This document shows positions 1-32,000 of a stretch of DNA of 32,000 bases, one piece after another (position 1 is the first letter of the stretch; each line of letters begins with the position of its first letter). The stretch covers positions 330,001 through 362,000 of the forward strand of contig CP072208.2 in NCBI GenBank assembly GCA_015257795.3, read 5' to 3'. Made by a program: the position numbers and the translations under genes. The notes beneath the pieces are model-generated. The model ran no database searches. It saw only the letters and a program-made list of their open reading frames with translations, and was not told the DNA's origin. This stretch comes from Candidatus Nanogingivalaceae bacterium. Its GTDB lineage: Bacteria; Patescibacteriota; Saccharimonadia; Saccharimonadales; Saccharimonadaceae.

Positions 1-779
1 TTTTTTGTAGTTCTTTCTGAAAATTGCTTTTGTAGTTTTTTTGCAGTTTCATCGTTCTTTGCACCAATAATGACTCCCGATGTTTCCCTATCGAGACGGT
101 GAACAATACCGACACGATTTGTACCTTTTGCAAACTTAGCACCACGACTTTCAAAAAAATCTGCAACAGTAAATTCATCATTTAAAACTCCTTTACTGTG
201 CGTTAAGACACCCCGAGGCTTATTAATCACAACAACGTTCTCATCTTCAAAAATAATCGAAAAATCAACCTTTTCAACCTTTTTATCTGGAATACTAATT
301 AAAATTTTCGATTTTTCGTCCACTAAATCTTTTGGTTTTTTCGCAAGTTTTCCATTAACTTCAACAAAACCATTTTTAATATATTTTTGAATTGTAGCAC
401 GTGAAAATTCTGGATATTTTTCAGCTAAATAAACATCCAAACGCTTTTTCGACTGAATATTTTGGAAAAGATAAACGTCTTTACCTTCAAAAGGTATCGC
501 GAAGCTCATCATTGAATCTAATGGATTTTCAATCAGACGTCCTTCGATTTCGCCAAAATTCTTACGCAAAATCTCTCGAATATAAGACTCATCATCTTCC
601 GCGGTCCCATCAATAATAACAAAAAATTTATTCTTATTAAATTTAAATGTAAATATTTCTGAAAATTCGTCAGCCGAAATCTTTTTAAGCTCTTCAATAT
701 TTCGTGGAACATTGTCTTCGTTCGCGATATTGAATTTTCGCAAAATCTTTAAAATATCACTCGAATTAAATTTCGCCAT
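1..779 (-). CDS. rluD: RluA/RluD-family pseudouridine synthase with S4 domain, partial (C-terminus lies beyond the left edge)
   Basis: Not in the ORF track because it runs off the window. My translation from ATG 779 gives [11 protein letters not shown]... It contains an S4-like segment ([33 protein letters not shown]) and the RluA-family catalytic motif HRLDRETSG. The start overlaps the trpS stop by 14 nt. Confidence 0.8.
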
Positions 780-1806
780 TTTTATCTCCAAAATAGTCAA
801 TTTTCATTGCACGTTTAACTTCTTGCAAAGTTTCCGCTGCAGCTTTTCGTGCCTTCACACTTCCTTCTTCGAGCATTTTATAAATAGCTCCGGGATCTTT
901 CGCAAGCTCTTCACGCCTTTCTCGAATAGGTTTTAAAATCTTATCCATTTCTTCGATAAGGTATTTTTTAACCGCAACATCACCTAGTCCACCTTTTTGA
1001 TATTGCTTTTTCATTTCTTCAACCTTATTTTTATCTTCAGCAAAAACATCTAGATATGCAAAAACAACATTTCCTTCAACCTTACCCGGATCTTCAACCC
1101 TAATATGATCTGGATCCGTATACATTTTCATTACTTTTGCACGCATTTCTTCAAAAGAATCTGCAAGATAAATTCCATTATTTAAACTTTTACTCATCTT
1201 AGCATTCATACCATTAACACCCGGCAAACGGCGCTCAAGCCCTTCTTTCGAAAGAATAATTTCCGGCTCAACGAGAACTTCTGAATTATAAGCTTGATTA
1301 AAAGAACGCGCGATTTCACGAGTTAATTCAATCATCGGCGATTGGTCTTCACCGGCAGGAACATGAGTTGCTTTAAAAGCCGTAATGTCTGCGGCCTGCG
1401 AAATCGGATAAAACACAAAACCGCTTGGCACACCTTCGCCAAAGTTTTTCTGTTTAATCTCGGTTTTAACTGTTGGATTGCGTTCAAGACGCGAGATAGA
1501 AACTAAATTCGCATAAAACATTGCCAATTCAGGAAGTTGTGGAACCTGACTTTGAATAAAAATTGTCGTTTTCGAAGGGTCAATTCCAGCAGCTAAATAA
1601 TCCAATGCAACCTCAAGAACATTTTCACGAACTTTTTCAGGATTTTTTGCATTATCTGTTAAAGCTTGGGCGTCTGCAATCATTACAAACATCTCATATT
1701 CGCCTGAATTTTGTAGATCTACTCGGTTTTTCAATGACCCCACATAATGACCAATATGTAATTTTCCAGTCGGACGATCACCTGTTAAAATAATTTTTTT
1801 ACTCAT
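766..1806 (-). CDS. trpS: Tryptophan--tRNA ligase
   Basis: 346-aa track ORF with a class I HIGH-type motif ([11 protein letters not shown]) and a KMSKS motif. The ATG overlaps the upstream gene's TGA stop (ATGA). Confidence 0.92.
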
Positions 1807-2615
1807 TTTTGCTCCTTTAAAGACTTATTAATATCTTTCGAAATTTGTGAAATCATTGATTTTGTTGGATCGTGTGCGCTTAAAACTCGCGAAACTTTAA
1901 TTTTATCGTTTATCCTACCTAACTTTCGAATATTTCTACCAATCACAACAGGATCGAAAGCTCCATAAATAATTTTCGTTGGTGTTTCAGTTTTTGAAAG
2001 AACAGTGAAAGTATCTTGTTGGATAATAGCTTCTTTTAAAGACCTTCGAACTGGACGAAACTGTTCTTGCGAATCAAATTTTTCAACATCTGCTACACCC
2101 ATTCCAATTGCGGTATTTACAAATTTAATAGATTCCTTTGGATCTGAAACAATTTTTTGATAACTCTTTTTAAGGATAAATTCTTGAACCGATTCACGAG
2201 CTTCTTCTGGTGAATATATTGGCGGCGAAAGTAGAAATATCTTATCTACGAGATTTGGGTACATTTTTGAAAATTCAGCAGCAACTAAAGACCCCATTGA
2301 ATGGCCTACTAAAAATAGAGGTTTTTTATATTTTTTCATTACAAAAACCATCCTACGAACTGCCCGGGCTTGCACGGCAAGACTTTGTGCGCCCAACCAT
2401 TTTGGTTTTGGTGATTTTCCATGACCGATCAAATCAACGGCGTAAATGTCAAATTCACCTTCAATTTCACTTTCAGCTTTCTTCCACATTGCAGCATTGC
2501 TTGCAATTCCATGAATAAAAACCACCACAGCTTCAGGGTTATCCGAACTACGCATTTTTGTAGCGTGAAGTCGATAAGGCACTCTCATATTTTTATGCAA
2601 AAACGAATCAAACAT
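1803..2615 (-). CDS. Alpha/beta-fold hydrolase
   Basis: HG oxyanion motif ([11 protein letters not shown]) and nucleophile elbow GHSMG. The start is ambiguous. The track uses TTG 2669, which lies inside the rpsH terminator stem and adds a T-rich hydrophobic N-terminus. I prefer ATG 2615, which sits 7 nt downstream of TGtTATAAT. Confidence 0.8.
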
Positions 2616-2622
2616 TAATATT

Positions 2623-2651
2623 ATTATAACATATCCAAGTAGTAAAATAAA
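2623..2651 (-). promoter_or_regulatory. Putative promoter of the hydrolase-trpS-rluD unit (TTTATT-17-TGtTATAAT), with the ATG 7 nt downstream
   Basis: Read directly on the minus strand. It has an extended -10 and a weak -35. Confidence 0.4.
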
Positions 2652-2656
2652 CCCTA

Positions 2657-2694
2657 CTAAAAAAGACAAGCCCTCATTAGAAGACTTGTCTTTT
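2657..2694 (-). terminator. Hairpin plus U-tract after rpsH
   Basis: AGACAAG / CTTGTCT stem extendable by A/U pairs, followed by T6. The 14-nt loop is large. Confidence 0.45.
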
Positions 2695-2716
2695 TAATTT
2701 AGCCTTAAGGATTAAA

Positions 2717-3118
2717 CTACCAAACTTTAAGTAGCAATTCGCCACCAAGTCGTTGTTTTTTAGCCTCAAAACCATTCATTACACCTTTTGAAGTTGAAAG
2801 TAGAACCATTCCACGACCACTTTTAATTCGTGGGATTTCTTCTACACCTACGTACATTCGGCGTCCTGGTTTACTCATTCGAGTAAGTTCATTAAAGCGA
2901 GCAGCTTCGCCATCTTTAGCAATTTTTACTACCAAGATATCGCGAGGTTTTGCTGACTCAACTTTAACAGATTCAATATAATTAGCTTTAGCAAGCTCTT
3001 TCGCTACTACTTCTTTCAATTTACTTGAAGGAACGCGAATTTCATTTTTGCCAACCATTGCTGCATTTCGAATGCGAGTTAGAAGGTCGGCAATAGGGTC
3101 AGTTGATTGTAATGACAT
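2717..3118 (-). CDS. rpsH: 30S ribosomal protein S8 (uS8)
   Basis: Recognisable uS8 sequence (DPIADLLTRIRNA...), spc-operon position after S14, and an SD (GGAGAA) upstream. Confidence 0.95.
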   Translation of the reverse strand: MSLQSTDPIADLLTRIRNAAMVGKNEIRVPSSKLKEVVAKELAKANYIESVKVESAKPRDILVVKIAKDGEAARFNELTRMSKPGRRMYVGVEEIPRIKSGRGMVLLSTSKGVMNGFEAKKQRLGGELLLKVW

Positions 3119-3133
3119 ATTTTCTCCTTCCTT

Positions 3134-3403
3134 CTACCAACTACTTTTCGTTACGCCTGGGATTTCACCCTTTGAAGCTTTAATGCGGAAAGTGATTCGG
3201 CTCATACCAAATCGTCGCATATAACCGCGTGGTCGACCATCAAAATTGTCGCGGTTCTTAAGTCGTGTAGGACTTGAGTTGCGTGGAAGCTTTTGAAGAC
3301 CTTCTTGGTCACCAGCAGCTTTCAATTCGGCGCGTTTTGCAGCATATTTTTCAATCATTTTTTTGCGCTTCAAGTCTTTTGCAATCATTGATTTTTTAGC
3401 CAT
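3134..3403 (-). CDS. rpsN: 30S ribosomal protein S14 (uS14), long non-zinc form
   Basis: 89 aa ending in ...[11 protein letters not shown], with no CxxC pairs. TAATG junction with rplE. Confidence 0.93.
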
Positions 3404-3981
3404 TACGCTTTTCCTTTCTTTTCAAATGGAATACCGAATTTTTCAAGTAGTGCTCGACTGTGAGCTTCACCTTCGTTTTTAATTACGAAAGTAACTTGAA
3501 GTCCGTGAAGAATTTGTGTTTCTTCGAAAGTCAATTCTGGGAAAATTGATTGTTCTAAAATTCCCAAGTTATAGTTTCCACCTTTGTCGAAACCTTTTGC
3601 ACCAACTCCATGGAAGTCTCGAACACGAGGTAATGCAACATTTACAAGACGGTCAAGGAATTCATACATTCGATCACCGCGCAAAGTTACACTATAACCA
3701 ATTGGAGCACCCATTCCACCACGAATTTTGAAAGTAGCAATTGATTTTTTAGGCAAACGTGCTACTGGTGTTTGACCAGTAATTTTTGTAACTGTATTTT
3801 TTACAGCTTCTTGAAAACGTTTGTCTTCTTTCTTTTTTCCTGTTCCTACGCTAACAACGATTTTTTCAAGCTTTGGAACTTGGTGGATATTTGTTAGCTC
3901 TAGTTCGCTTTCGAGTTCTTTAACAATAGTGTCTTTGTAAAGAGTTTTCAAGCGAGGAACATAAACAGTAGTTTTAGCCAT
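3403..3981 (-). CDS. rplE: 50S ribosomal protein L5 (uL5)
   Basis: 192-aa uL5-like sequence in the expected operon position, with TAATG junctions on both sides. Confidence 0.95.
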
Positions 3982-4244
3982 TATTTATCTCCTTTTTTGC
4001 TTGATTTAGCGCTTTTAGCTTCTACTTTTTTAACTTTGTGAACTGGAGTTGGAACATGAATGTCTTTTACTCCACCACGTGGATTAAATTGGTTTGGTTT
4101 AATGTGACGGTGTTTTTTACCAACACCTTCAACTAGAACGGCGTTTTTCTTTGGTAGAACTTTAACAACTTCACCTGTCAAACCTTTATCTTTTCCACTG
4201 ATAATTACAACATTATCACCTTTTACAATTCCATTTAACGCCAT
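3981..4244 (-). CDS. rplX: 50S ribosomal protein L24 (uL24)
   Basis: 87 aa with a KOW-like segment (VKGDNVVIISGKDKG), located between L14 and L5. Confidence 0.93.
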   Translation of the reverse strand: MALNGIVKGDNVVIISGKDKGLTGEVVKVLPKKNAVLVEGVGKKHRHIKPNQFNPRGGVKDIHVPTPVHKVKKVEAKSAKSSKKGDK

Positions 4245-4245
4245 A

Positions 4246-4614
4246 TTAGAGCACCTCCGGAGCTAAGCTGATAATTTTGTTATATCCCAAATCGCGAAGC
4301 TCGCGTGGCACTGGACCAAATACACGAGTTGCTTTTGGAGTTTTGTCGTCAGCGATAATAACTGCAGCATTATCGTCAAAACAAATAGTTGAACCATCTT
4401 TTCGACGAATCTGGTCGCGAGTTCGCACAACAACAGCCTTCACAACTGATTTTTTCTTAACGTTACCAGTTGGGTTAGCGTCTTTAACAGTAGCAACGAT
4501 AATATCGCCAACTCGTGCGTAGCGGCGTTTTGAACCACCAAGAACACGAATACAAAGGATTTCTTTTGCACCACTGTTATCTGTTACTTTAAGTCGGCTT
4601 TCTTGTTGAATCAT
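4246..4614 (-). CDS. rplN: 50S ribosomal protein L14 (uL14)
   Basis: 122 aa, [17 protein letters not shown]..., a classic uL14 N-terminus. Confidence 0.96.
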
Positions 4615-4883
4615 TATGCCTCCTCTTTCAATTCTACTGAACCTCGGGCTTTTTCAACAATTTCAACTAAAGCAAAACTTTTAGTTTTCGAAATTGGTCG
4701 AACTTCTTTGATAACAACTTTGTCGCCTTCACCAGCTTCATTGTTTTCATCATGAGCAGTGTATTTTCGAGTTACAGTATATTGTTTGCCGTAAATTGGG
4801 TGTGTTTCACGGCTATGAACTGTTACGGTGATAGTTTTGTCGGCCTTAGCGCTCGAAACAACACCTGTCAATGTAGTCGCCAT
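4614..4883 (-). CDS. rpsQ: 30S ribosomal protein S17 (uS17)
   Basis: uS17 sequence ([18 protein letters not shown]...). I moved the start to ATG 4883, which lies 1 nt after the rplP TAA and has GGTGA upstream. The track's GTG 4895 would overlap rplP. Confidence 0.93.
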
Positions 4884-4884
4884 A

Positions 4885-5304
4885 TTAGATTTCACCTTTC
4901 TTTACGAATTTAACTTTTACTGGAAGTTTGTGGCCAGCAAGTCGCATAGCTTCGCGAGCAACTTCTTCTGAAACACCATTCATTTCAAACATGACAGTTC
5001 CAGCTTTAACTTTTGCCACAAAGAATTCTGGATTTCCCTTACCGCTACCCATTTTCACGTCTTGTGGTTTTCGAGTAACTGGTGTATGTGGGAAAATTCG
5101 AATCCAAACTTGACCGCCACGTTTAATGTAACGAGTCATAGCTGTTCGAGCTGATTCAATTTGTCGTGAATTGATTCGCTCATTTTCAAGGCTCATTAGA
5201 CCGTAGTCACCGAAAGCAACAGTGTTTCCACGAGTTGCTCGGCCTGGGTTTTTACCTTTTCGAACTTTTCGGTGAGCGGTTTTCTTTGGTAACAAAATAG
5301 CCAT
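4885..5304 (-). CDS. rplP: 50S ribosomal protein L16 (uL16)
   Basis: 139-aa uL16 sequence ([11 protein letters not shown]-type N-terminus) in the S10-operon position. Confidence 0.96.
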
Positions 5305-5939
5305 TACTTAATATTCCTTTCACCTTTATTAATCCAAACTTTTACACCGATAATACCAGCTGGGGTTTTTGATCGTGCGCCGTGATAATTGATGTCTGCA
5401 CGGATTGTATGTAGAGGCACAGAACCTTCTGAGAATTTCTCGCGACGGCTCATTTCAGCACCATTCAAACGTCCAGCAACCTCAATACGAACACCTTTCG
5501 CACCAGCTTGCATTGTATTTTGTAAAGCCATTTTTACGGCTCGACGGAAGTTAATTCGACGTTCAAGTTGACGAGCAATATTTTCAGCAACTAATTTAGC
5601 TGAAAGTTCTGGTCGTCGAACCTCTTCAATATTAATTCGAACCGGCAAGCTAACCATTTTTTCAAGTTGAGCTTTTAGTTCTTGAACGCCAGCACCACCA
5701 CGTCCAATCACAACACCTGCTTTTGCAGTATGAATTGAAACGGTGATAAGGTTTTCTGTTCGTTCGATTTCGATTCGGTCGATAGTTGGTCGGCTTTCAA
5801 ATCGTTTTTCGATAGTTTTTCGGATTTTGTCATCTTCAATCAAGAATTTTGCAAAATCTTTTTTCTGAGCAAACCATCGTGAATCCCAGTTTTTATGAGC
5901 TTGCAAACGGAAGCTAATTGGATTAACTTTTTGACCCAT
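5304..5939 (-). CDS. rpsC: 30S ribosomal protein S3 (uS3)
   Basis: 211 aa, [12 protein letters not shown]..., with KH-domain GRGG. Confidence 0.96.
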
Positions 5940-6355
5940 TATTTGCTCTCTTTCTCTGCTTTTGCAGTAGTTTTCTTAACTTCAGCTTTTTTAGCTGGAG
6001 CTTTTTTCTCTTTAACAACGCCAGAAACTTCTACTAAAATGTTTGAAGTTTTCTTTTGGAAAGGAAGCGCCATTCCTCGCATATGAGGTTTAAATCGCTT
6101 TAGTCGTGAACCAGCTGTAACCGACAAAGTTGTGATTACAAGAGTTTTTGGATCAGCATTATCGTTGTTTTTAGCGTTAGCTGCAGCCGATTGAATAGCT
6201 TTTTTAACAGCTAAAGCGCTTCGGCGTGGTGTGTGATCAAGGATAACTAGAGCATCAGCAACAGTTCGACCCCGAACAAGACTTGCCACGATTGAAACTT
6301 TTCGTGGAGCCTGACCAATACCTTTGATGTAGGCACGAGTTGTTACATTAGCCAT
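5939..6355 (-). CDS. rplV: 50S ribosomal protein L22 (uL22) with a Lys/Ala-rich C-terminal tail
   Basis: 138 aa with a uL22 core and a tail KEKKAPAKKAEVKKTTAKAEKESK. Confidence 0.94.
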   Translation of the reverse strand: MANVTTRAYIKGIGQAPRKVSIVASLVRGRTVADALVILDHTPRRSALAVKKAIQSAAANAKNNDNADPKTLVITTLSVTAGSRLKRFKPHMRGMALPFQKKTSNILVEVSGVVKEKKAPAKKAEVKKTTAKAEKESK

Positions 6356-6621
6356 TATTTCTTATCCTTTCCACCGTGTTTTCGGAATTTACGTGTTGGC
6401 GCAAATTCACCAAGTTTATGTCCAACCATATTCTCTGAAATATAAACAGGAATATGCAATCGACCATTGTGAACAGCGATAGTTCGACCAACCATTTCTG
6501 GTGTAATTGTGCTTGAGCGAGCCCAAGTTTTAATCACTGTTCGGTCATCAGCTCCAAGAGCCGCTACTTTTTTAGCAAGCTTGAAGTCGATAAACGGACC
6601 TTTTTTCAATGAACGACTCAT
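6355..6621 (-). CDS. rpsS: 30S ribosomal protein S19 (uS19)
   Basis: 88 aa, [12 protein letters not shown]... Confidence 0.96.
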
Positions 6622-7467
6622 TTATTTTCTCCTCTTAGCTTCGTGACGACTCTTCACGATAAATTTATTAGTACTCTTACGTCGGCGAGTTTTGTAACCG
6701 AGAGTTGGTTGACCCCAAGGTGTGCGTGGAGTTGAACGACCAATTCCGTGTCGTCCACCATCACCACCACCGTGTGGGTGATCTACGGCATTCATAACAA
6801 CACCACGAACTGTTGGACGAATACCCTTGCGGCGTTTGCGACCAGCAGAACCAAGTTTAATATTTTGGTGTTGAATATTTCCAACTGTTCCAAGAGTTGC
6901 CTCTGCTTCCAATCGGAATTTTCGAACTTCGCCTGAAGGTAACTTAACCTGTGCGTAATCACCTTCTTTAGCCATTAACTGAGCTTTTGCACCAGCTGAA
7001 CGAACCATTTGTGCACCTTTTCCTGGTGTGATTTCAATTGCATAAATCAATGAACCAACAGGAATTTCTGAAAGTGGCATTCGGTTTGAGGCTTCAATTT
7101 CAATGTCTTTTTTACCAGTTTGGAAAACTTTTCCTTGGAACATTGATGTATCAGCCAATACATAGTAGAATTTACCATTTTGATCTTGAACTCGAGCAAT
7201 TCGCGCGCTTCGGTTTGGATCATATTCGATTTCTCGAACTGTTAAAGTCAAACCTGTTGGCAATTTGTGAGTTAAGATTCGGTAATGTCGCTTAACACCA
7301 CCACCTCGGTGTCGAACTGTAATTCGACCAGAGTTGTTGCGTCCAGCATTTTGCTTTTTCGCTTTCAAAAGACTTTTTAGCGGTTTTCGAGTTGTGATTT
7401 CGCTATAGTCTTCAGTCGTCATACCGCGTCGAGCAGGAGTCGTAGGATTATATTTCTTAATAGCCAT
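6622..7467 (-). CDS. rplB: 50S ribosomal protein L2 (uL2)
   Basis: 281 aa with the conserved MNAVDHPHGGG motif. Confidence 0.97.
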   Translation of the reverse strand: MAIKKYNPTTPARRGMTTEDYSEITTRKPLKSLLKAKKQNAGRNNSGRITVRHRGGGVKRHYRILTHKLPTGLTLTVREIEYDPNRSARIARVQDQNGKFYYVLADTSMFQGKVFQTGKKDIEIEASNRMPLSEIPVGSLIYAIEITPGKGAQMVRSAGAKAQLMAKEGDYAQVKLPSGEVRKFRLEAEATLGTVGNIQHQNIKLGSAGRKRRKGIRPTVRGVVMNAVDHPHGGGDGGRHGIGRSTPRTPWGQPTLGYKTRRRKSTNKFIVKSRHEAKRRK

Positions 7468-7802
7468 TACTTCTTCTCCTCAGCAGTTTCAGCTTCAGCG
7501 CTTTCAAAGATTGCAATTTTATCACCTTCTTTTACAGTCACGTAAGCTTTCTTGATATCTTTTTGAGTTGTTGAACCAGCAACGTATCGTTTTGGATTTC
7601 GAGATTTGTTGATTCGTTTAACTTTACCAGCTTGAACAACAGTTCGAACGCCAGTTACAGTTACTTCAAACTCTTTTTCAATCGCTTCTTTGATTTGATT
7701 TTTATTCAAAGTTAGCGGTACATTAAATACGTAAACATTTTTTGTTGTAGAAAGAGCATAAGCTTTCTCGGTTGCTCGTGGAGTAATAGGTTTGATCGCC
7801 AT
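7467..7802 (-). CDS. rplW: 50S ribosomal protein L23 (uL23)
   Basis: 111 aa, located between L4 and L2, with uL23-like sequence. Confidence 0.92.
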   Translation of the reverse strand: MAIKPITPRATEKAYALSTTKNVYVFNVPLTLNKNQIKEAIEKEFEVTVTGVRTVVQAGKVKRINKSRNPKRYVAGSTTQKDIKKAYVTVKEGDKIAIFESAEAETAEEKK

Positions 7803-8389
7803 TATTTTTCTCCTCCTAACCAGTTTTCGATTGTTTCAATTGCTTTTGGTGCAATAACAATGTGATCAGCGTTCAAAATGTCGAACACATTTAGATACAT
7901 TGGTGAAACAAGCAAAGCTTCACTAATATTATTTGTTGCACGAATTAATTCGTCTGTTTTTTCAGCAACGATAAGAACTCGTCGATTCAAATTATTCTCT
8001 TTCAAGAATTTTGCAACTTCAGCAGTTTTACCAGTTGTTTTGATATCTGCAACAAGAACTTTATCAGCTTTAACTGTCAAAGCTTGTCGAAGAGCAACTC
8101 GTTTTGAAGTTTTTGAAATTTTCTTAGTATAGTTTTCATTACCACGTGGTCCAAAAACAATACCACCGCCTCGCCAGATTGGGTTTCGAATTGATCCAAA
8201 TCGTGCGCGACCAGTTCCTTTTTGTCGCCATGGTTTTTTACCACCACCGCGAACTTCACCGCGTTGTTTTGTTGTAGCGCTTGCTAAGCGGTTATTAGCA
8301 AGATAAGCGTCATAGGCAAGCTTCAAGAGTTCGTGATTTCGAACTTCAACTGCAAAAACGCTTTTTGGAAGAGTTGTTTTTTCAGCCAT
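7802..8389 (-). CDS. rplD: 50S ribosomal protein L4 (uL4)
   Basis: 195 aa with the motif RGGGKKPWRQKGTGRAR. Confidence 0.96.
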   Translation of the reverse strand: MAEKTTLPKSVFAVEVRNHELLKLAYDAYLANNRLASATTKQRGEVRGGGKKPWRQKGTGRARFGSIRNPIWRGGGIVFGPRGNENYTKKISKTSKRVALRQALTVKADKVLVADIKTTGKTAEVAKFLKENNLNRRVLIVAEKTDELIRATNNISEALLVSPMYLNVFDILNADHIVIAPKAIETIENWLGGEK

Positions 8390-9003
8390 TATGCTTTACC
8401 TCCAATGCTAACAAGACCTTTCTTTGGTCCTGGAACAGCACCTTTTAGCCCAATTAAATTATTCTCTACATCGATATAGGCAACTGTTAGATTTTTAACA
8501 GTAACTTTATCGTGTCCCATTCGTCCAGGCATTCTTTTACCTTTAAAGACTTTTTGTGGATACATTGATCCGATTGAACCAACACGACGCACGTTTCCGT
8601 TTCCACCGTGTGAGCTCTTGCTTGTGTTAAAGTTGTGTCGCTTAACCGTTCCAGCAAAACCTTTACCTTTGCTTGTTCCAGTTACATTAACAATGTCTCC
8701 AAGCTCGAAAGCTTCAACATTAATTTTAGCGCCAACTTTTACATCCGCAGGGATTTCGTCAACGCGGAACTCACGAAGATGCTTCGGAGTTACCTCTGCT
8801 GGTTTTACATGTCCAGCCACGGCCTTGCTCAGGTTCTTACCCTCACCAAATGCCACTTGAACTGCGTTGTAGCCGTCTGTTTCAACGGTTTTAACCTGAG
8901 TCACAGTTACAGGGCCAGCTTGAACGAGCGTAATTGGTGTAACAACGCCGTCTTCACCGATGATTTGGGTCATACCAATTTTGGTACCGAGAAGTGTTTT
9001 CAT
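8389..9003 (-). CDS. rplC: 50S ribosomal protein L3 (uL3)
   Basis: 204 aa, LLGTKIGMTQI..., and the first gene of this transcription unit. Confidence 0.96.
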   Translation of the reverse strand: MKTLLGTKIGMTQIIGEDGVVTPITLVQAGPVTVTQVKTVETDGYNAVQVAFGEGKNLSKAVAGHVKPAEVTPKHLREFRVDEIPADVKVGAKINVEAFELGDIVNVTGTSKGKGFAGTVKRHNFNTSKSSHGGNGNVRRVGSIGSMYPQKVFKGKRMPGRMGHDKVTVKNLTVAYIDVENNLIGLKGAVPGPKKGLVSIGGKA

Positions 9004-9146
9004 TTCACTTATGCTCCCATTAATTTAATATTAGTAAACTTTCCACGATTAAAGCTTGGCGTTCGCGTGGTTTCGAAAGCGGGTTTTCCCTGTTACGACC
9101 CTCGCATAGCCAAGTTTTACATTTACGTAAATAAAGTTCACCCATA
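9004..9146 (-). promoter_or_regulatory. Structured 5' leader of rplC (candidate ribosomal-protein autoregulatory leader)
   Basis: Three competing helices are visible: CTTGGC/GCCAAG, GGGT/ACCC, and CCACG/CGTGG. The 3' arm of the first helix lies inside the loop of the third. Confidence 0.35.
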
Positions 9147-10252: not shown

Positions 10253-10916
10253 CGATTTTATACCCTAAGCCACGAACTGTTTTAATTAATTTATCCTTAA
10301 ACGGCTTATCAACCTTTTCGCGCAAATAGCTAATATAAACTTCAATATTATTTGGCAAAATATCAGCATCATAGTCCCAAACGTGGGCGATAATTTGCTC
10401 TTTCGAAACTGGTCGACCAGCGTTTCGAACAAGATATCCTAAAAGCGAAAATTCTTTATTTGTGAGTTCGATTTTTTGATTATTTCGAAGAACTTCATGT
10501 GTATTTAAATCTAGCGATAAATCAGCCACTCTTAAAACCGTTTCCACTGACGTTTGAGGCCGACGTAAAAGCGCACGCACGCGTGCAAGAAGCTCATCGA
10601 GCGCAAATGGTTTTGTTAAATAATCATCCGCGCCACCATCTAAACCTTCTGTTTTATCTTGAGTTGCTCCAAGTGCGGTTAAAAGCAAAATTGGCACATT
10701 TTTTCCTTCTTCTCGAAGTTTTTTAGTTAGGCTCAAACCATCGTAATCACCGGGAATCATTCGATCAAGAATTAATAAATCATAGTCGATCATTCCAGCC
10801 ATCGCATAAGCATCTGTACCATCGTATGAAATATCCACGGCATATTTTTCATTTTTTAAAGCTCGCCCGAGTGCTCGAGCAATTTTTCGTTCATCTTCAA
10901 CAATCAAAATTCTCAT
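10242..10916 (-). CDS. OmpR-family response regulator (receiver plus winged-helix)
   Basis: MRILIVEDE..., phospho-acceptor context LLILD, conserved LTKPF, and C-terminal TVRGLGYK. Confidence 0.92.
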   Translation of the reverse strand: MRILIVEDERKIARALGRALKNEKYAVDISYDGTDAYAMAGMIDYDLLILDRMIPGDYDGLSLTKKLREEGKNVPILLLTALGATQDKTEGLDGGADDYLTKPFALDELLARVRALLRRPQTSVETVLRVADLSLDLNTHEVLRNNQKIELTNKEFSLLGYLVRNAGRPVSKEQIIAHVWDYDADILPNNIEVYISYLREKVDKPFKDKLIKTVRGLGYKIDEE

Positions 10917-10933: not shown

Positions 10934-10970
10934 TGCTTTACTTAAAAATTCCTGAAAATTTATTTTTTCG

Positions 10971-20607: not shown

Positions 20608-20621
20608 AAAGTCATAAACTA

Positions 20622-21806: not shown

Positions 21807-21840
21807 TTTTAGATTTTCTCCTTTTATTAATAATATTATG

Positions 21841-21886
21841 CGCGTCGCACGAGTCACTGTTTTAGCAAAACACACGACGCGACGCT
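21841..21886 (-). promoter_or_regulatory. GC-rich stem-loop in the tuf 5' leader
   Basis: GCGUCGCGU pairs with GUGCGACGC (7 Watson-Crick and 2 GU pairs) and encloses a small GUUUU-GCU-AAAAC hairpin. No U-run follows. Confidence 0.45.
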
Positions 21887-25495: not shown

Positions 25496-26506
25496 TTATC
25501 GCCGCAAAATTTTACTCAAAATTGTGCGGAATAAATATCTTTTGCGATATTCACCAGCATACTCAACCGCTACACCACGAAAACCAGCTTTAAAACGCAA
25601 CAAGCTCGCCTTTGGTTCTGCCGTGATACCATAAAAATTATATTTCGAAGCTCCTGCACGAATCGCCTCTTTAATCATATAATCTTGCAAAAATGTTGAA
25701 GCTGGAATTTTGCGATATTCTTGAAGACTTCCACCTTCAAAATAGACAACTTCATTTTTCGAAAAGATAAACACGCCAGCAGAAATTAATTTTCCTTCAA
25801 ATTCTACACCCATAAAATGCGCTTGCTCGCCAAAACAAGTTTTTAAATTGTGGTAATATTCTTCATCCCGCGTGCCAACACCATTTTTTTGATTTGAGCT
25901 TTTTAAAATCGCCACAAAATCGGCAAATTCGCTCTCTTTAACTTTGCGAACATTCACACCTTTTTTCATTGCTGCGCGCAAATTTCGGCGGGTAGTTTGG
26001 TTATAAGTTGAAGCCACGCCATCTTCACTTAATTCTGTTAGATCTTTCAAATAAACATGCATGTTTACATCCATATCAAACTCGTGCTTAAAGCCAGAAT
26101 GATATTTAAAACCAGCTTTTAATAGTGGCTCGCTTAGCCATTTTAAGTTAGTGCTTTCGATAATTTCAAGCTTGTCATTACGAAGCGCACGCACCACTTT
26201 TGGTAAAATACGATAAGAAATCGCTCCACGTTCACGTGCAAATTCTTCACTCTTCACCAAAAAATCCACAAAATCTGCTTGCGAAACGCCATTTTGCTCA
26301 ACCATCACCAAATCGAAACGCTTATTTTTGCTAGAAATCAACCCAGCAACTTCAATTCTTTCATCATTTTTTAACGCCACAAAATAGCATTCTGCGCCAC
26401 GCTTCTTGCGCATTTCGGCAAATTCTACACTTTGCAACCAGTCAATGTTTTTATCTTGGCAATAGTTTTGGTATTCTTCTTTTAAAATCTCTACAAGGCT
26501 TTTCAT
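25496..26506 (-). CDS. FemAB-family (FemX/MurM-like) aminoacyl-tRNA-dependent peptidoglycan peptidyltransferase
   Basis: 336 aa with two GNAT-like halves and no coiled-coil insert. The C-terminal block (YNFYGI...LLRFKAGF) is typical of the FemAB family, recognised from memory. Confidence 0.75.
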   Translation of the reverse strand: MKSLVEILKEEYQNYCQDKNIDWLQSVEFAEMRKKRGAECYFVALKNDERIEVAGLISSKNKRFDLVMVEQNGVSQADFVDFLVKSEEFARERGAISYRILPKVVRALRNDKLEIIESTNLKWLSEPLLKAGFKYHSGFKHEFDMDVNMHVYLKDLTELSEDGVASTYNQTTRRNLRAAMKKGVNVRKVKESEFADFVAILKSSNQKNGVGTRDEEYYHNLKTCFGEQAHFMGVEFEGKLISAGVFIFSKNEVVYFEGGSLQEYRKIPASTFLQDYMIKEAIRAGASKYNFYGITAEPKASLLRFKAGFRGVAVEYAGEYRKRYLFRTILSKILRR

Positions 26507-26515
26507 ATATCCTCT

Positions 26516-26524
26516 ATTTTAACA
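26516..26524 (-). promoter_or_regulatory. Extended -10 (TGtTAAAAT) 9 nt upstream of the FemX-like ATG
   Basis: The 9-nt gap (AGAGGATAT) contains GAGGA only 3 nt from the ATG. The gene is therefore either leaderless or read through from res. Confidence 0.35.
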
Positions 26525-26530
26525 CAAAAA

Positions 26531-26583
26531 AACCAATTTTAAAACCAGCCCGATAGCTCTTTTTGCTACTGGAAGCTGGTTTT
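26531..26583 (-). terminator. Possible terminator after res
   Basis: AAAACCAGC / GCTGGTTTT stem with a 25-nt loop, followed by a T-rich tract. Confidence 0.4.
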
Positions 26584-26643
26584 AAACTTCAATAAGTTAT
26601 TTTTCAATTTTGATATTGATCGCCTAAATATCCTAAAAAGTTA

Positions 26644-29292
26644 TTATAAATCCCGTAATATAGTTTTAATTTTATCTCTACTAATCTTATTATTAAAGAA
26701 AGGCAGCCCAACAATACGATAATTGTCATTATCAATCAGCATTTTAGCATCAGACCGTTTTGTAATCTCATTCAAGAAGCGTTGCTTCCAACCTTCTTTT
26801 CCTTTGTCGAATCCACCTTCACTATCAAAGGACCCATCACCTTTTGGCTCAATAAAGATCTGCCATGAAGTGTTTTCGCTCCTTTTATCATTAGCAAATA
26901 GTAAGAAATCTGGTTCAAAAGCTTTTCCATCCTCAAAATTATATATCCGGACAGCTTTTTCGTTTCTTAGCAGATAAATATCTGACCATTTTTCTTCCAG
27001 TTCATTTATTAGAGGTTTTAATGTTGTAACTAGTAACTTCTCTTCATCGGTTCCAAAATTATCATCATAAGCATACCATTCAAGAGCATCTATGTTCGCA
27101 TAATATTGCGTGTCATTGGGGTTCTTTTGAGAATGACCAAATTCCTTATTATTATGTTTATTAATTGTATATCTACGAATAATATCATCTTCAAAAATTT
27201 CCCGAATTGAATAAGCCTCAAAGGTATCTGACCCAAAGTAACGCTGCTCCATAGGCAGTAAAGAGTTTTCCATCTCCCGAAGAAGCTTTTCTGCAATAAC
27301 CAACTTTTCATCTTGGTTTAGCATATCTTTATTTTTTGCACACCCCTTATACTGTACTTCAACATTTGATAGCTTATCTATAAATCCAGAGACGCTAGAA
27401 ATACCAACTATTGCCTTACGAATCTTATCAAACGTAAAGTTTTTATTCCTATTCATAGCATGTCGAACAATATGCATGTCAATTACCTTGCCAAATTTAA
27501 AGAAAAATTCATTAGGATTATTAATCGGAGTACTGTCATTATCATCCCCAAAAGCGTCTATCTCGAAAATACTATTAGAAGGAAATGATACTTCAATACT
27601 ATCTGGCACAAATGTTGTATCAAATAAACTACCTTGTCTGCTTTTAACTACTTCTTCATACGAAAGACGTTTGTTCATCCACACAACACCGTCAGTATAA
27701 GTACGGGTTCTCTTGAACGATTCTTTTAGTTTTAACTCTCGTTCAACCATATTTTGATCGTCATAAATTCCGGATTCACGTAAAACTTGCTTCATCTCAT
27801 AAATATATCTAGGGTTATTGGCTGAATGGTAATGTAATTGTTCAATAACACGAAGTTCGTTATTTTCGTTTTCGTCAAATTTACGAGTATATTTCTCTTC
27901 AACTTTTCCATCAATCACAAAAGGATAATAACGTGCCCCACGCCCGATTAATTGTTTTTCAGCATTTGTAGTTTTGCCAGCTTGAAATCCTGTTTCAGTT
28001 GTTTTTCCATCACGCTTATCATACAAACGAACAATATCAAACAAGTTTAGTACATCCCAGCCTTCATTTAACATATCTACTGCAAAGATTGCACGAATTT
28101 CGTTTGAAGGTAACTCCAACGTGTTTAGTGTTACAAGGTGATTACTATTCTTATTCTTTCCATCAATCAATAGCAAACGCTCTTCACGAAAGTCTTCTTG
28201 TAATTCAGAAATTAGGTCAAACAAACTGAGCTCAGACGCTTCAAAAAAGTCCAACGCTTTTTGCAGCACATTGACTTTTGTGTCTGTATTAATCTGAATC
28301 ATTTCTTTTTGCTCTAAAATCATTTCAGGGGTCAACTCTGATAACATTTCTTGGAACAATTCCATGTTCCCTTTATTATCCGCAATTTTCTCAGATTTAA
28401 ACATGACTAGTGGTTTTAAATTCACGCCATTCTTTAATGCAATTTTTTTACGATATTGACTGATAAGAATTGCATTCAACATGCGAACCTTTAAATTACC
28501 ATCAACTAAATGGAACAAAACATCTTTTGAGTACTTATCAAGACGGAATTCCTTCAAATCGTATTTAAAAATTAAAGAGTCTTTGTATTTTTCTGCAATA
28601 TCTTTATTGGAAAGATCAATGGTAGCCGTAAACTCAAAAATACTTGAACGTGCCGCTCTTTTTTGAATGTTCTCAATTGTAGAAGTCCAGCTTGTGTTAT
28701 CATCTTTTTCGCCTTTACTTAATCCAGCGTTTAGATGGTGAGCTTCGTCTGCTAATAAAACAACTGATAAACCTTCAAATTGTTCATATGACAAGCGGTT
28801 CTCACGCGGTGTATTTAAATCTAAATGTAACTTTTGAATTGTTGTAAACACAATATTAATAGCATCTGATTGTGCATCCGAGAAATCAGTCACTTCACGC
28901 ACATTCACCACTTGGTTATCAATCACAATTTTGTCTGCAAATAAATATTTTTCATTACCAGAATCTACAAAATTACTTCTCGTTTTTGTAAGAATATTGT
29001 CATTATTAACAAAGAAGATAAAATTACGTTCACCTTGCTTATACTTTTCAAGAATGATTGCAGCCATTAACAAGGTTTTACCTGAACCTGTTGCCATATT
29101 AAACAAGATTTGTTCTCGAGAAGACGCTTCACAAGAATAATGATATAAATAACGGTTCACTGCTTCTTCTTGATATGGGCGAAGAGAATATTTTAAATTA
29201 CCTACTATATAGTCTGGTATCTTTTTTCGGAATTTTTGTTTTTCTATTTTGTCCAAAGTATTATAAAATTCATACAAGAAGTTATAATCCAT
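26644..29292 (-). CDS. res: Type III restriction enzyme Res subunit (SF2 helicase plus C-terminal PD-(D/E)xK nuclease)
   Basis: Motif I MATGSGKTL, motif II LLADEAHH, and nuclease-like FEPDFLLF...IFIEPKG at the C-terminus. ATG 29292 is preceded by GAGGTGA and overlaps the mod stop by 11 nt. The alternative ATG 29316 lacks an SD. Confidence 0.88.
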   Translation of the reverse strand: MDYNFLYEFYNTLDKIEKQKFRKKIPDYIVGNLKYSLRPYQEEAVNRYLYHYSCEASSREQILFNMATGSGKTLLMAAIILEKYKQGERNFIFFVNNDNILTKTRSNFVDSGNEKYLFADKIVIDNQVVNVREVTDFSDAQSDAINIVFTTIQKLHLDLNTPRENRLSYEQFEGLSVVLLADEAHHLNAGLSKGEKDDNTSWTSTIENIQKRAARSSIFEFTATIDLSNKDIAEKYKDSLIFKYDLKEFRLDKYSKDVLFHLVDGNLKVRMLNAILISQYRKKIALKNGVNLKPLVMFKSEKIADNKGNMELFQEMLSELTPEMILEQKEMIQINTDTKVNVLQKALDFFEASELSLFDLISELQEDFREERLLLIDGKNKNSNHLVTLNTLELPSNEIRAIFAVDMLNEGWDVLNLFDIVRLYDKRDGKTTETGFQAGKTTNAEKQLIGRGARYYPFVIDGKVEEKYTRKFDENENNELRVIEQLHYHSANNPRYIYEMKQVLRESGIYDDQNMVERELKLKESFKRTRTYTDGVVWMNKRLSYEEVVKSRQGSLFDTTFVPDSIEVSFPSNSIFEIDAFGDDNDSTPINNPNEFFFKFGKVIDMHIVRHAMNRNKNFTFDKIRKAIVGISSVSGFIDKLSNVEVQYKGCAKNKDMLNQDEKLVIAEKLLREMENSLLPMEQRYFGSDTFEAYSIREIFEDDIIRRYTINKHNNKEFGHSQKNPNDTQYYANIDALEWYAYDDNFGTDEEKLLVTTLKPLINELEEKWSDIYLLRNEKAVRIYNFEDGKAFEPDFLLFANDKRSENTSWQIFIEPKGDGSFDSEGGFDKGKEGWKQRFLNEITKRSDAKMLIDNDNYRIVGLPFFNNKISRDKIKTILRDL

Positions 29293-31027
29293 TCTGCTCA
29301 CCTCTATAAAACTCATAATTTAATTTCTTGTCAGCATCCGAAACTCTATTGCTAACATCGTCTATATCAGAGTAATTTACATACAAATTATTATTATCAA
29401 CAATCTCGGATAGGATTTGTTTTTGTTCAGCTAATGAAAGCTTTTCAAATTCATTCGCTTTCAGCTTTTTAGGGTCAATACGATAAGATAAGAAGGAAGA
29501 TTTTTTAGCAAGCTCAAACAATTTCAGTAATTCTTCTGGATTTGTCGCATCAAGAATGGCTTGTTTGAAATCTTGGGCGTCGTTCTTGAGCTCGGCGTAA
29601 ACAAAACTTCCCCCACCAGACCAATTGGTATCTTTTGAGATGCCGCTCTGCTCTCCAATAATAACTTTCTTCAAGCGCTCAACAGAAATTGTTTCAATAT
29701 AATCCATTTGTTCAATACCAATGTATTGGCGATTCATTTTATGCGCAACAGCGGCGGTTGTGCCTGAGCCGAGATGAAAATCAAGAACGATGTCGTTTTC
29801 GTCAGTATGTGCTTCAATAATACGTTGTAGTAGTTTTTCAGATTTTTGACCTTTCAGATCATCGCCACCGAGCAGTTTGGATACACTTTCGCCTGCGAAA
29901 CTCACAATCGCAATACTATTTAAATCATCGTATTCGTTCGCATTCCACACATCTTCTAACGGATAACGTTCAGGGCGATTGGCAAAATTCAAATCATTCA
30001 AGATTTGCGTTTTTACAGTTGCCGAAATACCATATTTTTCAAAGGTTTCTTTGGTTTTTTTATCATCTTTAATGAGTGGTTTAAATTGCGTATTTGGAAT
30101 GTAATGCTTATTAAAATTCAATTGAGTAGCATTTTTTGAATAGAATAAAATAGTGTCATGATTACGTACGTAATTATTCACACTTGTTTTATAGCCAGAC
30201 ACCCAACCAATTCGCCAAATAATTTCACGCTGAAAATTTGCCTTGCCAAAAATTTCGTCCATTAACACTTTACAGTAATGTACTTCGTTGTAGTCTAAAT
30301 TAACGTAAATTGCGCCATCGTCGGCTAATAATTCTCGAGCAATTTCAAGTCGATTCTTCATAAATGTCAACCAGGTTGAATGATTGAAACTATCATTATA
30401 CTTAAATCCATCATTTCCCGTATTATAAGGCGGATCAATATAAATCAACTTAACCTTGCCAGCAAAGCGTTTCTTGAGACTATGCAGAGCAATAAGATTA
30501 TTCCCTTTAATAATAAGATTATCAGTATCTTTTACCTCTTCCACGTTATGTTCGCCAGTTTCGTCATAGCGTTTGAAGTTGGTCAAGACCTTATCATCCA
30601 GTAAACGATTAATTTCCGTTGGAGCAAACGTTTCGTTAAAGAAAATCTCTTGACGTTTAGCATCGTCCTTAGTCTGTCCACCCTCAAGGACACAGTCTTT
30701 GTACGGAAAATTTAAAACAACTTCTTGATTTTCTGACAGGTACTTATCGCCTGTCGCTAAACCGATTTTAGTCTTGTAGGCGGTAAAGCTATCAGGGAGA
30801 AACTCCTTATTGTTCAAAAACTGCAAAAAGACATCTTTCTTAAAGACGAGGGAGCCAGTTTCGAGTGTTGAAAAGAAATGATTAGAGATTTGCTCATCAC
30901 TCATTAAAATATTTAGGAGTTCAGGATTATACTGTCGTGCCAGCTCTGCTAATTTATTCTTATTTAATACTCCGTCTACTAAAAAATCAGGATTTTTAAC
31001 TAGGAGATTTTGCAATTCTTTCTTCAT
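29282..31027 (-). CDS. mod: Type III R-M Mod subunit, beta-class N6-adenine DNA methyltransferase
   Basis: Motif IV (IYIDPPYNTG) lies upstream of motif I (VLDFHLGSGTT), which is the beta-class order. The gene sits immediately upstream of res and overlaps it. Confidence 0.88.
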   Translation of the reverse strand: MKKELQNLLVKNPDFLVDGVLNKNKLAELARQYNPELLNILMSDEQISNHFFSTLETGSLVFKKDVFLQFLNNKEFLPDSFTAYKTKIGLATGDKYLSENQEVVLNFPYKDCVLEGGQTKDDAKRQEIFFNETFAPTEINRLLDDKVLTNFKRYDETGEHNVEEVKDTDNLIIKGNNLIALHSLKKRFAGKVKLIYIDPPYNTGNDGFKYNDSFNHSTWLTFMKNRLEIARELLADDGAIYVNLDYNEVHYCKVLMDEIFGKANFQREIIWRIGWVSGYKTSVNNYVRNHDTILFYSKNATQLNFNKHYIPNTQFKPLIKDDKKTKETFEKYGISATVKTQILNDLNFANRPERYPLEDVWNANEYDDLNSIAIVSFAGESVSKLLGGDDLKGQKSEKLLQRIIEAHTDENDIVLDFHLGSGTTAAVAHKMNRQYIGIEQMDYIETISVERLKKVIIGEQSGISKDTNWSGGGSFVYAELKNDAQDFKQAILDATNPEELLKLFELAKKSSFLSYRIDPKKLKANEFEKLSLAEQKQILSEIVDNNNLYVNYSDIDDVSNRVSDADKKLNYEFYRGEQNGL

Positions 31028-31073
31028 ATTAAGAGGTTCCTTTTTTACTTATTTTCTTTAAAGGGTTAATCGT

Positions 31074-31101
31074 GGGCTTCTCTATATGTAGAGAAGACCC
31101 C
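31074..31101 (-). promoter_or_regulatory. Strong hairpin / inverted repeat in the mod 5' UTR
   Basis: Minus strand reads GGGtCTTCTCTA-CATA-TAGAGAAGcCCC: 8 perfect bp plus 3 G-C pairs beyond one mismatch. No U-run follows. Confidence 0.5.
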
Positions 31102-31133
31102 TATAGCTTGATTTTATTAAAATCTATGTCTCT

Positions 31134-31162
31134 ATTTTACCAAATTTATCTGTTTTTCGCAA
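31134..31162 (-). promoter_or_regulatory. mod-res promoter (TTGCGA-17-TGgTAAAAT)
   Basis: Exact 17-nt spacer, just downstream of the fusA terminator. Confidence 0.55.
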
Positions 31163-31194
31163 AACAAAAACCACCTCCCGAAAGAGGTAGTTTT
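31160..31194 (-). terminator. fusA terminator
   Basis: CTACCTCT-TTCG-GGAGGTGG followed by TTTTTGTTTT. Confidence 0.65.
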
Positions 31195-31210
31195 CAAGTT
31201 TTCGAAATTA

Positions 31211-32000
31211 TTATTTAGCGTTTCGCTTTTCGATAATTTCTTGCGCAACGTTAGGTGGAACTTCTTCGTATTGCGCAAGCTCCATTGTTGAGGCTGCACG
31301 ACCTTTACTCATTGAGCGTAAGTCTGAAGTGTAACCAAACATATTTGCAAGAGGCACGAAACCTCGAATAAGTTTTGTTCCGCCCATCAAATCATCCATT
31401 GAGTCGATTCGACCACGGCGTGAGTTCAAGTCTCCAATTACATCACCCATGAATTCTTCAGGAGTTGTAACTTCAACTTTCATCACAGGTTCAAGAAGAA
31501 CAGGATTTGCCTTCTTAATACCTTCACGAGTTGAAAGCGCACCAGCCAATTTAAAGGCCAATTCACTTGAGTCGACATCGTGGTAAGAACCATCGTAAAG
31601 TGTAGCTTTAACGTCAACTACTGGGTAACCAGCAATCACACCGCCTTCAAGCGTTTCAAGCACACCTTGCTCAACTGGTTTGCGGTATTCTTGTGGCACA
31701 ACACCACCTTTAATTTCATCAAAGAATTCAAAGCCTTTTCCTGGTTCATTTGGTTCAAAGCGAATCCAAACATCACCATATTGACCACGACCACCAGACT
31801 GTTTTGCGTGCTTACCTTGAGCTTCAGCAGTTCCACGAATAGTTTCACGGAAGGCAACTTGTGGCTCACCAATGTTAGCTTCAACATTAAATTCACGTTT
31901 CATTCGGTCGATCAAGATGTCAAGGTGAAGCTCACCCATTCCCGACATAATTGTTTGACCAGTTTCTTCGTCTGTGTGAACTCGGAAAGTTGGGTCTTCT
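31211..32000 (-). CDS. fusA: Elongation factor G, C-terminal part (N-terminus lies beyond the right edge)
   Basis: The frame stays open to position 32000: ...[37 protein letters not shown]..., which matches EF-G domains III-V. Confidence 0.95.

Follow-up and report, generated by a model that had tools for sequence, protein, structure and literature searches.

The 32,000-nt stretch of Candidatus Nanogingivalaceae DNA analyzed here (the window; GC content 36.5%) carries a short palindrome, the hexamer TTCGAA and its octameric extension TTTCGAAA, scattered at high density through genes and spacers alike. The conserved str-S10-spc ribosomal cluster (window 2717-9003, 20144-21875, and 31211-31948; L084 20302-21041) is split by three blocks of unrelated genes. 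The first block, between fusA and tuf-rpsJ, holds a restriction-modification system, a FemAB-like gene, hypothetical genes, and a SufS-like gene; the second, between rpsJ and rplC...rpsH, holds nrdD, gpmA, queA, an ATP-binding cassette (ABC) transporter, and a two-component system; and the third, between rpsH and rplF-rplR, holds a hydrolase, trpS, an rluD-like gene, holB, a tetratricopeptide-repeat protein, a P-type ATPase, and GDPD. The mechanically called tuf open reading frame (ORF) at 20622-21875 has a GTG start and 417 aa, and EF-Tu models match it only from residue 24-25, so the true start probably lies about 23 codons downstream. Flanking sequence came from L081 and L082, which are 100% identical to the window, and from L084, which is 99.99% identical. 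The relatives, also denoted by L numbers, are QueA-anchored loci from GTDB species representatives; these loci assign the source to the Nanogingivalaceae group of Saccharibacteria (TM7), which comes from oral and gut metagenomes of humans, and the genome of the window is metagenome-assembled. Many samples from humans contain this species; TrpS by itself has entries in 68 blocks of the collection searched. Taken together, the data comprise about 47 kb of one genome and fragments of at most 21 kb (mostly shorter) from about 30 relatives, each centred on this one locus; counts refer to the window unless stated otherwise.

The window contains 77 copies of TTCGAA, 36 of which are the full octamer (2.4 and 1.1 per kb, respectively). 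A first-pass annotation of this DNA had given exactly these numbers, with coordinates that our computed count reproduces, and its crude expectation of about 10 hexamers and 1 octamer, for DNA judged to be 35-40% GC, comes close to the 10.6 and 1.06 predicted from mononucleotide composition. Stricter null models raise the expectation but do not reach the observed counts. Dinucleotide-preserving shuffles of the window yield 27.4±5.0 hexamers (maximum 44) and 4.5±2.3 octamers (maximum 10). In the coding DNA of 37 called genes, where 69 hexamers and 29 octamers are observed, shuffling synonymous codons within genes gives 33.6±4.6 and 7.3±2.3, shuffling codon order gives 22.8 and 2.9, and a dinucleotide-preserving third-base shuffle, which swaps only between identical dinucleotide contexts, gives 51.1±4.1 and 13.1±2.6. 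The observed counts thus exceed the dinucleotide, synonymous-codon, dicodon, and codon-order nulls (z of 4.4-10 for the hexamer and 6-15 for the octamer), and at the scale of the window the excess does not vanish once codon usage is modelled, a possibility that the annotation had raised. TTCGAA has the highest observed/expected ratio among all 64 palindromic hexamers, and among 8-mers TTTCGAAA ranks first in the window, L008, and L022 and fourth in L006, after three 6-copy words. Maximal-order Markov z-scores, which had also been suggested as a check, do not make TTCGAA stand out in the window; the ratios are merely 1.05-1.2 per step, because the sub-words of TTCGAA carry the same signal. This model was therefore set aside as a test of presence, and lower-order and codon-aware nulls were used in its place. 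The possibility that the window is unrepresentative can be answered too: the density persists past both of its ends in the same genome (19 TTCGAA and 11 TTTCGAAA in 10 kb; 9 and 4 in 5.3 kb) and recurs in non-syntenic DNA of relatives, so it is not peculiar to this locus.

The sites follow the logo T(69%)-TTCGAA-A(69%), and the flanks beyond ±4 have background composition; therefore, the octamer is no part of a longer repeat. Within it, enrichment is nested. In native chromosomal DNA (1-26643), TCGA reaches 2.3 times the mononucleotide and 1.6 times the first-order Markov expectation, TTCGAA 8.3 and 3.2 times, and TTTCGAAA 39 and 8.0 times. The nesting ends at the octamer, with TTTTCGAAAA at 8.4 times the first-order Markov expectation and the decamer adding nothing. 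One-base deviants of the octamer gather at its outer positions (observed/expected 2.42 at positions 1/8, 1.28 at 2/7, 0.93 at 3/6, and 0.80 at 4/5), as do those of the cyanobacterial highly iterated palindrome HIP1 (Elhai, PMC4390886). Site spacing in native DNA is Poisson-like, with a mean of 327 bp, a coefficient of variation of 1.01, and gaps of up to 1.6 kb. This is local spacing; the quasi-periodicity associated with HIPs has a scale of 10-90 kb.

Other short palindromes are avoided in the native part of the window: CATG stands at 0.47, GGCC at 0.51, GTAC at 0.59, and GATC at 0.67, while TGTACA, GCATGC, GGGCCC, and CCTAGG have no copies, and GTTAAC and CGATCG have a single copy each. Such avoidance suggests restriction pressure at those sites, and it makes TTCGAA a genuine exception. 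TTCGAA is a canonical Type II specificity (BstBI/AsuII), and targets of active restriction systems are normally depleted; the annotation's view that the word shows HIP-like enrichment rather than restriction-site avoidance is borne out. CATG is nearly lost in L024 (0.04). The dinucleotide composition of the window is itself odd for 36% GC, with CpG (1.32) and GpC (1.37) high and TpA (0.64) low; the CpG excess is also found in motif-poor Saccharibacteria (1.23) and is therefore not caused by the motif. TT and AA are high too (both 1.33). Some non-palindromic words are overrepresented as well, namely TGGCGA/TCGCCA and CTGGCG/CGCCAG (top in L023 and L024) and CTGGTG/CACCAG and GGTGGT (window and L006), and these are probably coding or peptide biases.

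Of all sites, 69 are coding and 8 intergenic, so that about 90% lie within genes; the density is 2.35/kb in coding DNA and 3.1/kb (gene-call set) or 4.25/kb (intergenic set) in non-coding DNA. The coding sites are read as xxT-TCG-AAx (Ser, 33 sites), xTT-CGA-Axx (Arg, 24 sites), and TTC-GAA (Phe-Glu, 12 sites); the annotation had recognized the Ser and Phe-Glu frames and overlooked the Arg frame. Enrichment peaks in intergenic DNA, where the full octamer prevails: the window has 8 TTCGAA against 1.2 expected and 7 TTTCGAAA against 0.29, and the window pooled with six relatives (seven genomes) has 44 against 9.7 and 32 against 2.07, whereas motif-poor Saccharibacteria have 1 against 1.3 and 0 against 0.15. 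Because enrichment extends to all three frames and is strongest between genes, the motif is a feature of the DNA and no codon preference, in agreement with the annotation's argument that no single codon preference could explain it. The eight non-coding sites which that argument cited all lie outside our gene calls, and the hairpin apexes (11426, 19228) and the promoter-like spacer (13658) assigned to three of them are seen (Table 1).

Table 1. Native DNA, non-coding and paired motif sites, and the restriction-modification island of the window
Feature	Position	Strand	Context	Relatives
Native chromosomal DNA	1-26643		76 of 77 TTCGAA and 35 of 36 TTTCGAAA, across genes and spacers	
Intergenic octamer	9071-9078		~70 nt upstream of rplC (8389-9003, minus)	Kept in L006
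Intergenic octamer	10966-10973		~50 nt upstream of response-regulator gene (10242-10916, minus)	Kept in L004, deleted in L006
Terminator-like hairpin	11411-11440	-	After ABC-2 permease gene; 12 pairs, CAAGAGCTGTTCGAAAAAGAACGGCTCTTG then T-rich tail; TTCGAA 11426-11431 at apex	Site kept in L006
Octamer pair 28 nt apart	12451-12494		Inside ABC-2 permease gene; sole close pair in window (0.03 expected from shuffles)	
Intergenic octamer	13657-13664		Spacer of promoter-like match TTGAAT-17-TAAAAT (13647-13675), 24 nt upstream of queA	Kept in L002, L003, L008, L025, L010, L014; TTTGAA in L006, L036, L005, L004
Intergenic octamer	15692-15699		29 nt upstream of ORF 15722-16774	Kept in 9 of 9 aligning relatives
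Terminator-like hairpin	19217-19240	-	Upstream of nrdD; AAACCGTTTCGAAAGAAGCGGTTT then T run; TTTCGAAA 19227-19234 at apex	Kept in L002, L003, L008, L010, L014
Intergenic octamer	20490-20497		~35 nt upstream of rpsJ	Kept in L002, L003, L006, L005; TTCGTA in L008, L025, L010, L014
Type III restriction-modification island	26644-31027	-	res 26644-29316 and mod 29282-31027; Pfam ResIII, N6_N4_Mtase, TypeIII_RM_meth	
Intergenic octamer	31200-31207		Directly downstream of fusA, at edge of the restriction-modification island	

Several terminator-like hairpins (11411-11440, 19217-19240, and 20576-20607) have a C-GAAA-G loop of the GNRA type at their tip. TTTCGAAAG provides such a loop, and this may favour the presence of the motif there.

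The hyper-abundance of TTTCGAAA is a property of one clade of human-associated Saccharibacteria (TM7), ultrasmall bacteria with an epibiotic lifestyle. Relatives with a QueA identity of at least 69% carry 1-3.6 TTCGAA per kb, including about 17 kb per locus that is non-syntenic to the window, whereas L027, L028 (Ca. Nanogingivalis gingivitcus), L030-L032, and all other phyla (about 45 outgroups) are at or below expectation. In a neighbour-joining tree of QueA, a single protein, the motif-rich genomes are monophyletic, with L027 and L028 as their motif-poor sister; the signal is attenuated in the L018-L020 branch. No alternative 'dialect' word of comparable strength was found in samples of 11-21 kb from motif-poor Saccharibacteria. 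The densest relative is L022 (GC 42%), which carries 3.6 sites/kb and 11 pairs of octamers separated by at most 30 nt. A 3.3-kb stretch of this locus (L022:3777-7127) is devoid of any ORF of at least 120 aa; it was considered as ribosomal RNA, a reading rejected because it has no Rfam match. A two-octamer pattern scan of viral contigs returned mostly chance matches and host-like density in none of them, and a three-octamer scan of metagenome contigs returned mostly local tandem arrays. Tandem TTTCGAAA arrays occur in unrelated metagenome contigs, among them L268, L215, L226, and L312, with 32 copies at multiples of about 27 nt in L268; contigs of this type are repeat arrays, unlike the genome-wide dispersal described here. 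The sole clade-like match of the metagenome scan is L232, a gut contig (GC 0.36) with 17 dispersed sites in 4 kb (4.2/kb), which looks like a further member of the clade.

Positional conservation between related genomes, which the annotation had proposed to examine, exceeds the background. Window motif sites are conserved at 84% in L002 against 62% for all hexamers, and at 70% against 45% in L006, 71% against 28% in L008, 59% against 29% in L036, and 36% against 17% in L022, although counts are small and the comparisons between relatives are not independent. Among frequent words, TTCGAA ranks 2nd to 12th in conservation in every one of these comparisons but the closest, L002, where it ranks 24th. 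The effect extends to synonymous positions: at residues that do not differ, TCG, CGA, and TTC codons persist in 12 of 15 cases inside the motif and 26 of 70 outside it in L008 (p=0.004), and in 9 of 13 and 18 of 61 cases in L036 (p=0.01), with the same trend, not significant, in L006 and L002. It extends to spacers as well, since 3 of 4 intergenic sites are kept in L008 against 32% of intergenic hexamers. There is nevertheless turnover. Sites are both gained and lost, some are private to each lineage, and orthologous differences are mostly CpG transitions to TTTGAA or TTCAAA. Within species (six contigs), single-nucleotide polymorphisms are somewhat fewer at motif sites than expected (e.g., 1 vs. 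4.8), and too few to polarise. Directional gain by multiple substitutions (such as CTTGTA to TTCGAA in L006) was considered and dropped, as TTCGAA was unexceptional in a strict-ancestral control of all hexamers, which was left with only about 1500 positions and was underpowered.

Protein sequences have shifted to fit the motif. The dipeptide F-E occurs 5.1-6.3 times per 1000 aa in motif-rich genomes against 2.5-2.7 in motif-poor Saccharibacteria and low-GC outgroups, [FLIV]-R-[A-initial codon] 6.3-6.8 against 4.2-4.4 times, and [T-ending codon]-S-[K/N] 9.3 against 5.0-6.3 times, in gene sets that are not strictly orthologous. Overall, motif-compatible peptides (F-E, x-S-K/N, and x-R-x) are 1.5-2 times commoner in motif-rich genomes, the Ser and Arg frames 1.5-1.9 times. 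The fraction of compatible sites actually written as TTCGAA is 25-50% in motif-rich genomes and 1-18% in motif-poor genomes and outgroups. Uptake sequences have reshaped the proteomes of Pasteurellaceae and Neisseria in like manner (Findlay & Redfield 2009, PMC2817400).

The motif is scarce in recently acquired or mobile DNA, as seen in two islands. A motif-free stretch of 5.4 kb (25764-31200) covers the first of these, between the FemAB-like gene and fusA; the annotation had taken this desert for fusA, and Pfam matches identify it as a Type III restriction-modification system whose res (890 aa) and mod (581 aa) reading frames overlap by 35 nt. The 4.4-kb island has no TTCGAA, and none of its 31 compatible peptide sites is realised, against 58 of 124 in the other genes (Fisher p=1e-7). 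It also has 1.6 TCGA/kb against 7.7/kb elsewhere and a CpG observed/expected ratio of 1.10 against 1.32, and it looks recently acquired. TCGA-directed restriction was rejected as the cause of its TCGA scarcity, as the depletion there affects many 4-mer palindromes, of which TCGA is just one. The second island, in L024, is phage-like: it encodes a D5-type primase/helicase, a capsid protein of phage type, and a large serine recombinase along with a Type III mod, and it has 1 TTCGAA in 7.1 kb (1-7100) where neighbouring native DNA has 3-7 sites/kb. The exception is the adjoining Type III res of L024 (7101-9956), which carries 8 sites; given this difference, mod and res may differ in residence time, or mod may have been replaced. 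The blocks inserted into the ribosomal cluster of the window, the restriction-modification island excepted, are motif-rich and therefore not recent.

Highly expressed genes, which the annotation described as avoiding the word, do realise fewer compatible sites: 26% in ribosomal-protein genes against 47% in other genes (p=0.02), and 0 of 7 in tuf and the fusA fragment (p=0.017). This deficit fits competition with codon selection. Avoidance, on the other hand, was overstated, as the main desert is the restriction-modification island, and fusA, said to have no TTCGAA, has 2 sites when read at full length in L081.

We tentatively propose that TTTCGAAA is a genome-wide 'self' tag akin to HIPs and uptake sequences, held in place by selection or drive, with a role in transformation or recombination and possibly methylated; we think this quite possible. 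A dimeric, sequence-specific protein would read the octamer (core TTCGAA, centre TCGA), most plausibly after a resident methyltransferase has modified the inner TTCGAA or TCGA. The payoff would come in natural transformation, where tagged DNA would be taken up or recombined preferentially, a preference that could act as selection or as molecular drive. Under such a preference, motif alleles would spread and be kept in place, the motif would come to lie in all frames and in spacers with proteins bent to fit it, and newly acquired DNA would be free of it. Background from other work is in line with the proposal. The phylum Saccharibacteria is naturally competent, with competence machinery (ComEC, type IV pili, DprA) known at the level of the phylum and com genes conserved throughout the Candidate Phyla Radiation (CPR; PMC10633639). 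HIP1 raises natural transformation by up to >100-fold in a methylation-dependent manner (bioRxiv 10.1101/2024.09.10.611283) and has been put forward as a recognition sequence for uptake (bioRxiv 10.64898/2026.06.24.733823); its sites are conserved and thought to be under selection (Xu et al. 2018, PMC5861425).

Several points weigh against the self-tag proposal. The Poisson-like spacing bears no sign of selection for evenness, and the conservation and accumulation of sites would equally follow from a structural or repair-linked function. The classical uptake signal sequences (USS) and DNA uptake sequences (DUS) are 9-12 nt long and non-palindromic, unlike TTTCGAAA, and an 8-mer discriminates only modestly against other AT-rich oral DNA. 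A search for a TTCGAA-specific methyltransferase, which the annotation had recommended, found no Type II or orphan enzyme for TTCGAA or TCGA in about 0.4 Mb of clade loci, which cover only about 3% of each genome; all ORFs there were searched by motif scan and against Pfam, and the enzymes found were Type I HsdM and Type III Mod only.

A stronger form of the proposal, which we consider rather doubtful, is that the CPR has in TTTCGAAA its first 'self' signal found for transformation or uptake, a palindromic tag, possibly read only if methylated, with which a clade of uncultivated oral and gut Saccharibacteria would favour its own kind of DNA and which would have arisen independently of HIP1, USS, and DUS. 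If this were true, self-recognition in natural transformation would have a general solution, reached convergently, in highly iterated palindromes. In the full-text literature, of which our coverage is partial, no paper ties TTCGAA or TTTCGAAA to Saccharibacteria, and none deals with uptake sequences in Patescibacteria.

Among the alternatives, the likeliest, though still unlikely, is that the motif is a functionless by-product. As in Elhai's model for HIPs, a resident TTCGAA or TCGA methyltransferase together with methylation-biased mismatch repair would ratchet near-matches up to full sites. The status of TTCGAA as a canonical Type II specificity fits this model, as does the nested enrichment of TCGA, TTCGAA, and TTTCGAAA, which mirrors GATC, CGATCG, and GCGATCGC of HIP1; the outer position of the one-base deviants, also described for HIP1 (PMC4390886), and the predominance of CpG transitions among orthologous site differences point the same way. 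Yet a footprint of very-short-patch (Vsr-type) repair was not found: the deamination products TTTGAA and TTCAAA stand at 0.90-0.93 of the first-order Markov expectation, against 0.80 in motif-poor relatives, and since they are not depleted, drive of the very-short-patch type is not supported. An enzyme specific for the hexamer leaves the preference for the octamer unexplained. The clade loci covered (about 3% of each genome) have also yielded no suitable methyltransferase. Above-background conservation at synonymous and intergenic sites, moreover, argues for the upkeep of particular sites over random replenishment, the same argument that Xu et al. made for HIP1 (PMC5861425).

Improbable in our judgment is the view that the motif is the binding site of an abundant dimeric DNA-binding protein, nucleoid-associated or chromosome-organising, with selection acting on site density, even though a function of that kind has been proposed for HIP1 (Xu et al., PMC5861425). 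An octameric palindrome with TTTC/GAAA half-sites suits a dimer, intergenic DNA has the highest density and the purest octamer, several sites lie 24-90 nt upstream of genes, and positions are conserved. However, some 90% of sites are inside genes in all frames, their spacing is Poisson-like, and for the motif-free mobile islands the view makes no specific prediction beyond young age.

A highly improbable alternative is a strand-discrimination mark for mismatch repair with a Dam-like role, for which a 6-mer would have to be enriched in order to recur every few hundred bases. The mark would be palindromic and could be methylated, it is genome-wide with genes included, and it recurs on average every 327 bp, an interval close to the one between GATC sites in Escherichia coli. 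To our knowledge, however, GATC itself is not enriched in Dam-using bacteria; neither a MutH-like nor a methyltransferase gene of the required kind was found among the clade loci covered (about 3% of each genome), spacing is no more even than random, with gaps of up to 1.6 kb in native DNA, and the octamer is again unexplained. Finally, that the excess is an artefact of dinucleotide content, codon usage, and codon-pair usage is close to untenable and already contradicted: raised CpG, TT, and AA, the low maximal-order ratios, and a dicodon null accounting for 51 of the 69 coding sites would speak for it, but the latter two nulls absorb the very signal under test, every shuffle is exceeded, the intergenic octamer stands at 15-24 times expectation, and sister Saccharibacteria of similar GC and CpG have no excess.

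Few short motifs are so abundant, and every one of them has pointed to a mechanism: USS and DUS to DNA uptake, Chi to recombination, and HIP1, only lately, to transformation. The present motif offers an independent case outside cyanobacteria, with another sequence, another phylum, and a tiny genome, for what such palindromes do, and with it one can ask directly if their common denominator is methylation, uptake, or chromosome structure. Saccharibacteria are only now becoming genetically tractable via natural transformation, and including TTTCGAAA in donor DNA, methylated or not, could improve this tractability or extend it to the present clade. The motif is also a sharp marker for the binning of metagenome-assembled genomes and for foreign islands; here, it flagged the Type III restriction-modification and phage-like islands.

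In comparison with known systems, the phenomenon is of a known kind, that of highly iterated palindromes and uptake-type motifs, and differs from them in sequence, base composition, and phylum. With HIP1 (GCGATCGC) and the alternate cyanobacterial HIPs it shares a palindromic octamer at about 1/kb, lineage-specific and present in genes and spacers; nested shorter palindromes of the methyltransferase-target type; conserved positions; one-base deviants at outer positions; and a naturally transformable host phylum. The resemblance to HIP1 noted in the annotation holds on four tests, namely a hyper-abundant palindromic octamer, dispersal without a longer repeat, conserved positions, and outer deviants. 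The two differ in that TTTCGAAA is AT-rich with a CpG core and is hosted by Saccharibacteria with genomes of about 1 Mb, whereas HIP1 is GC-rich and hosted by cyanobacteria, and in that the excess of 39 times the mononucleotide and 8 times the first-order Markov expectation is lower than the 15-300 times reported for HIP1. It is not HIP1 proper, which is GCGATCGC in a cyanobacterium; even the inner CGATCG is found just once in the native part of the window. Oriented motifs of the Chi or KOPS (FtsK-orienting polar sequence) type are defined by strand skew, and a palindrome has no orientation. The Type II target of BstBI/AsuII is the same hexamer, normally depleted and here the most enriched. 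In Campylobacter jejuni transformation, RAATTY methylated by CtsM is the self-mark, read in its methylated form; the short palindromic self-mark is shared with the tag proposed here, the discriminator there is the methylation state, and we know of no description of a strong RAATTY excess in that species. With the USS of Pasteurellaceae and the DUS of Neisseriaceae, TTTCGAAA has in common a frequency of about 1/kb, occurrence in all reading frames, a proteome shift, scarcity in acquired islands, clade specificity like that of uptake-sequence dialects, some copies in terminator hairpins, and a competent host phylum; it differs from them as a perfect 8-bp palindrome differs from asymmetric sequences of 9-12 bp.

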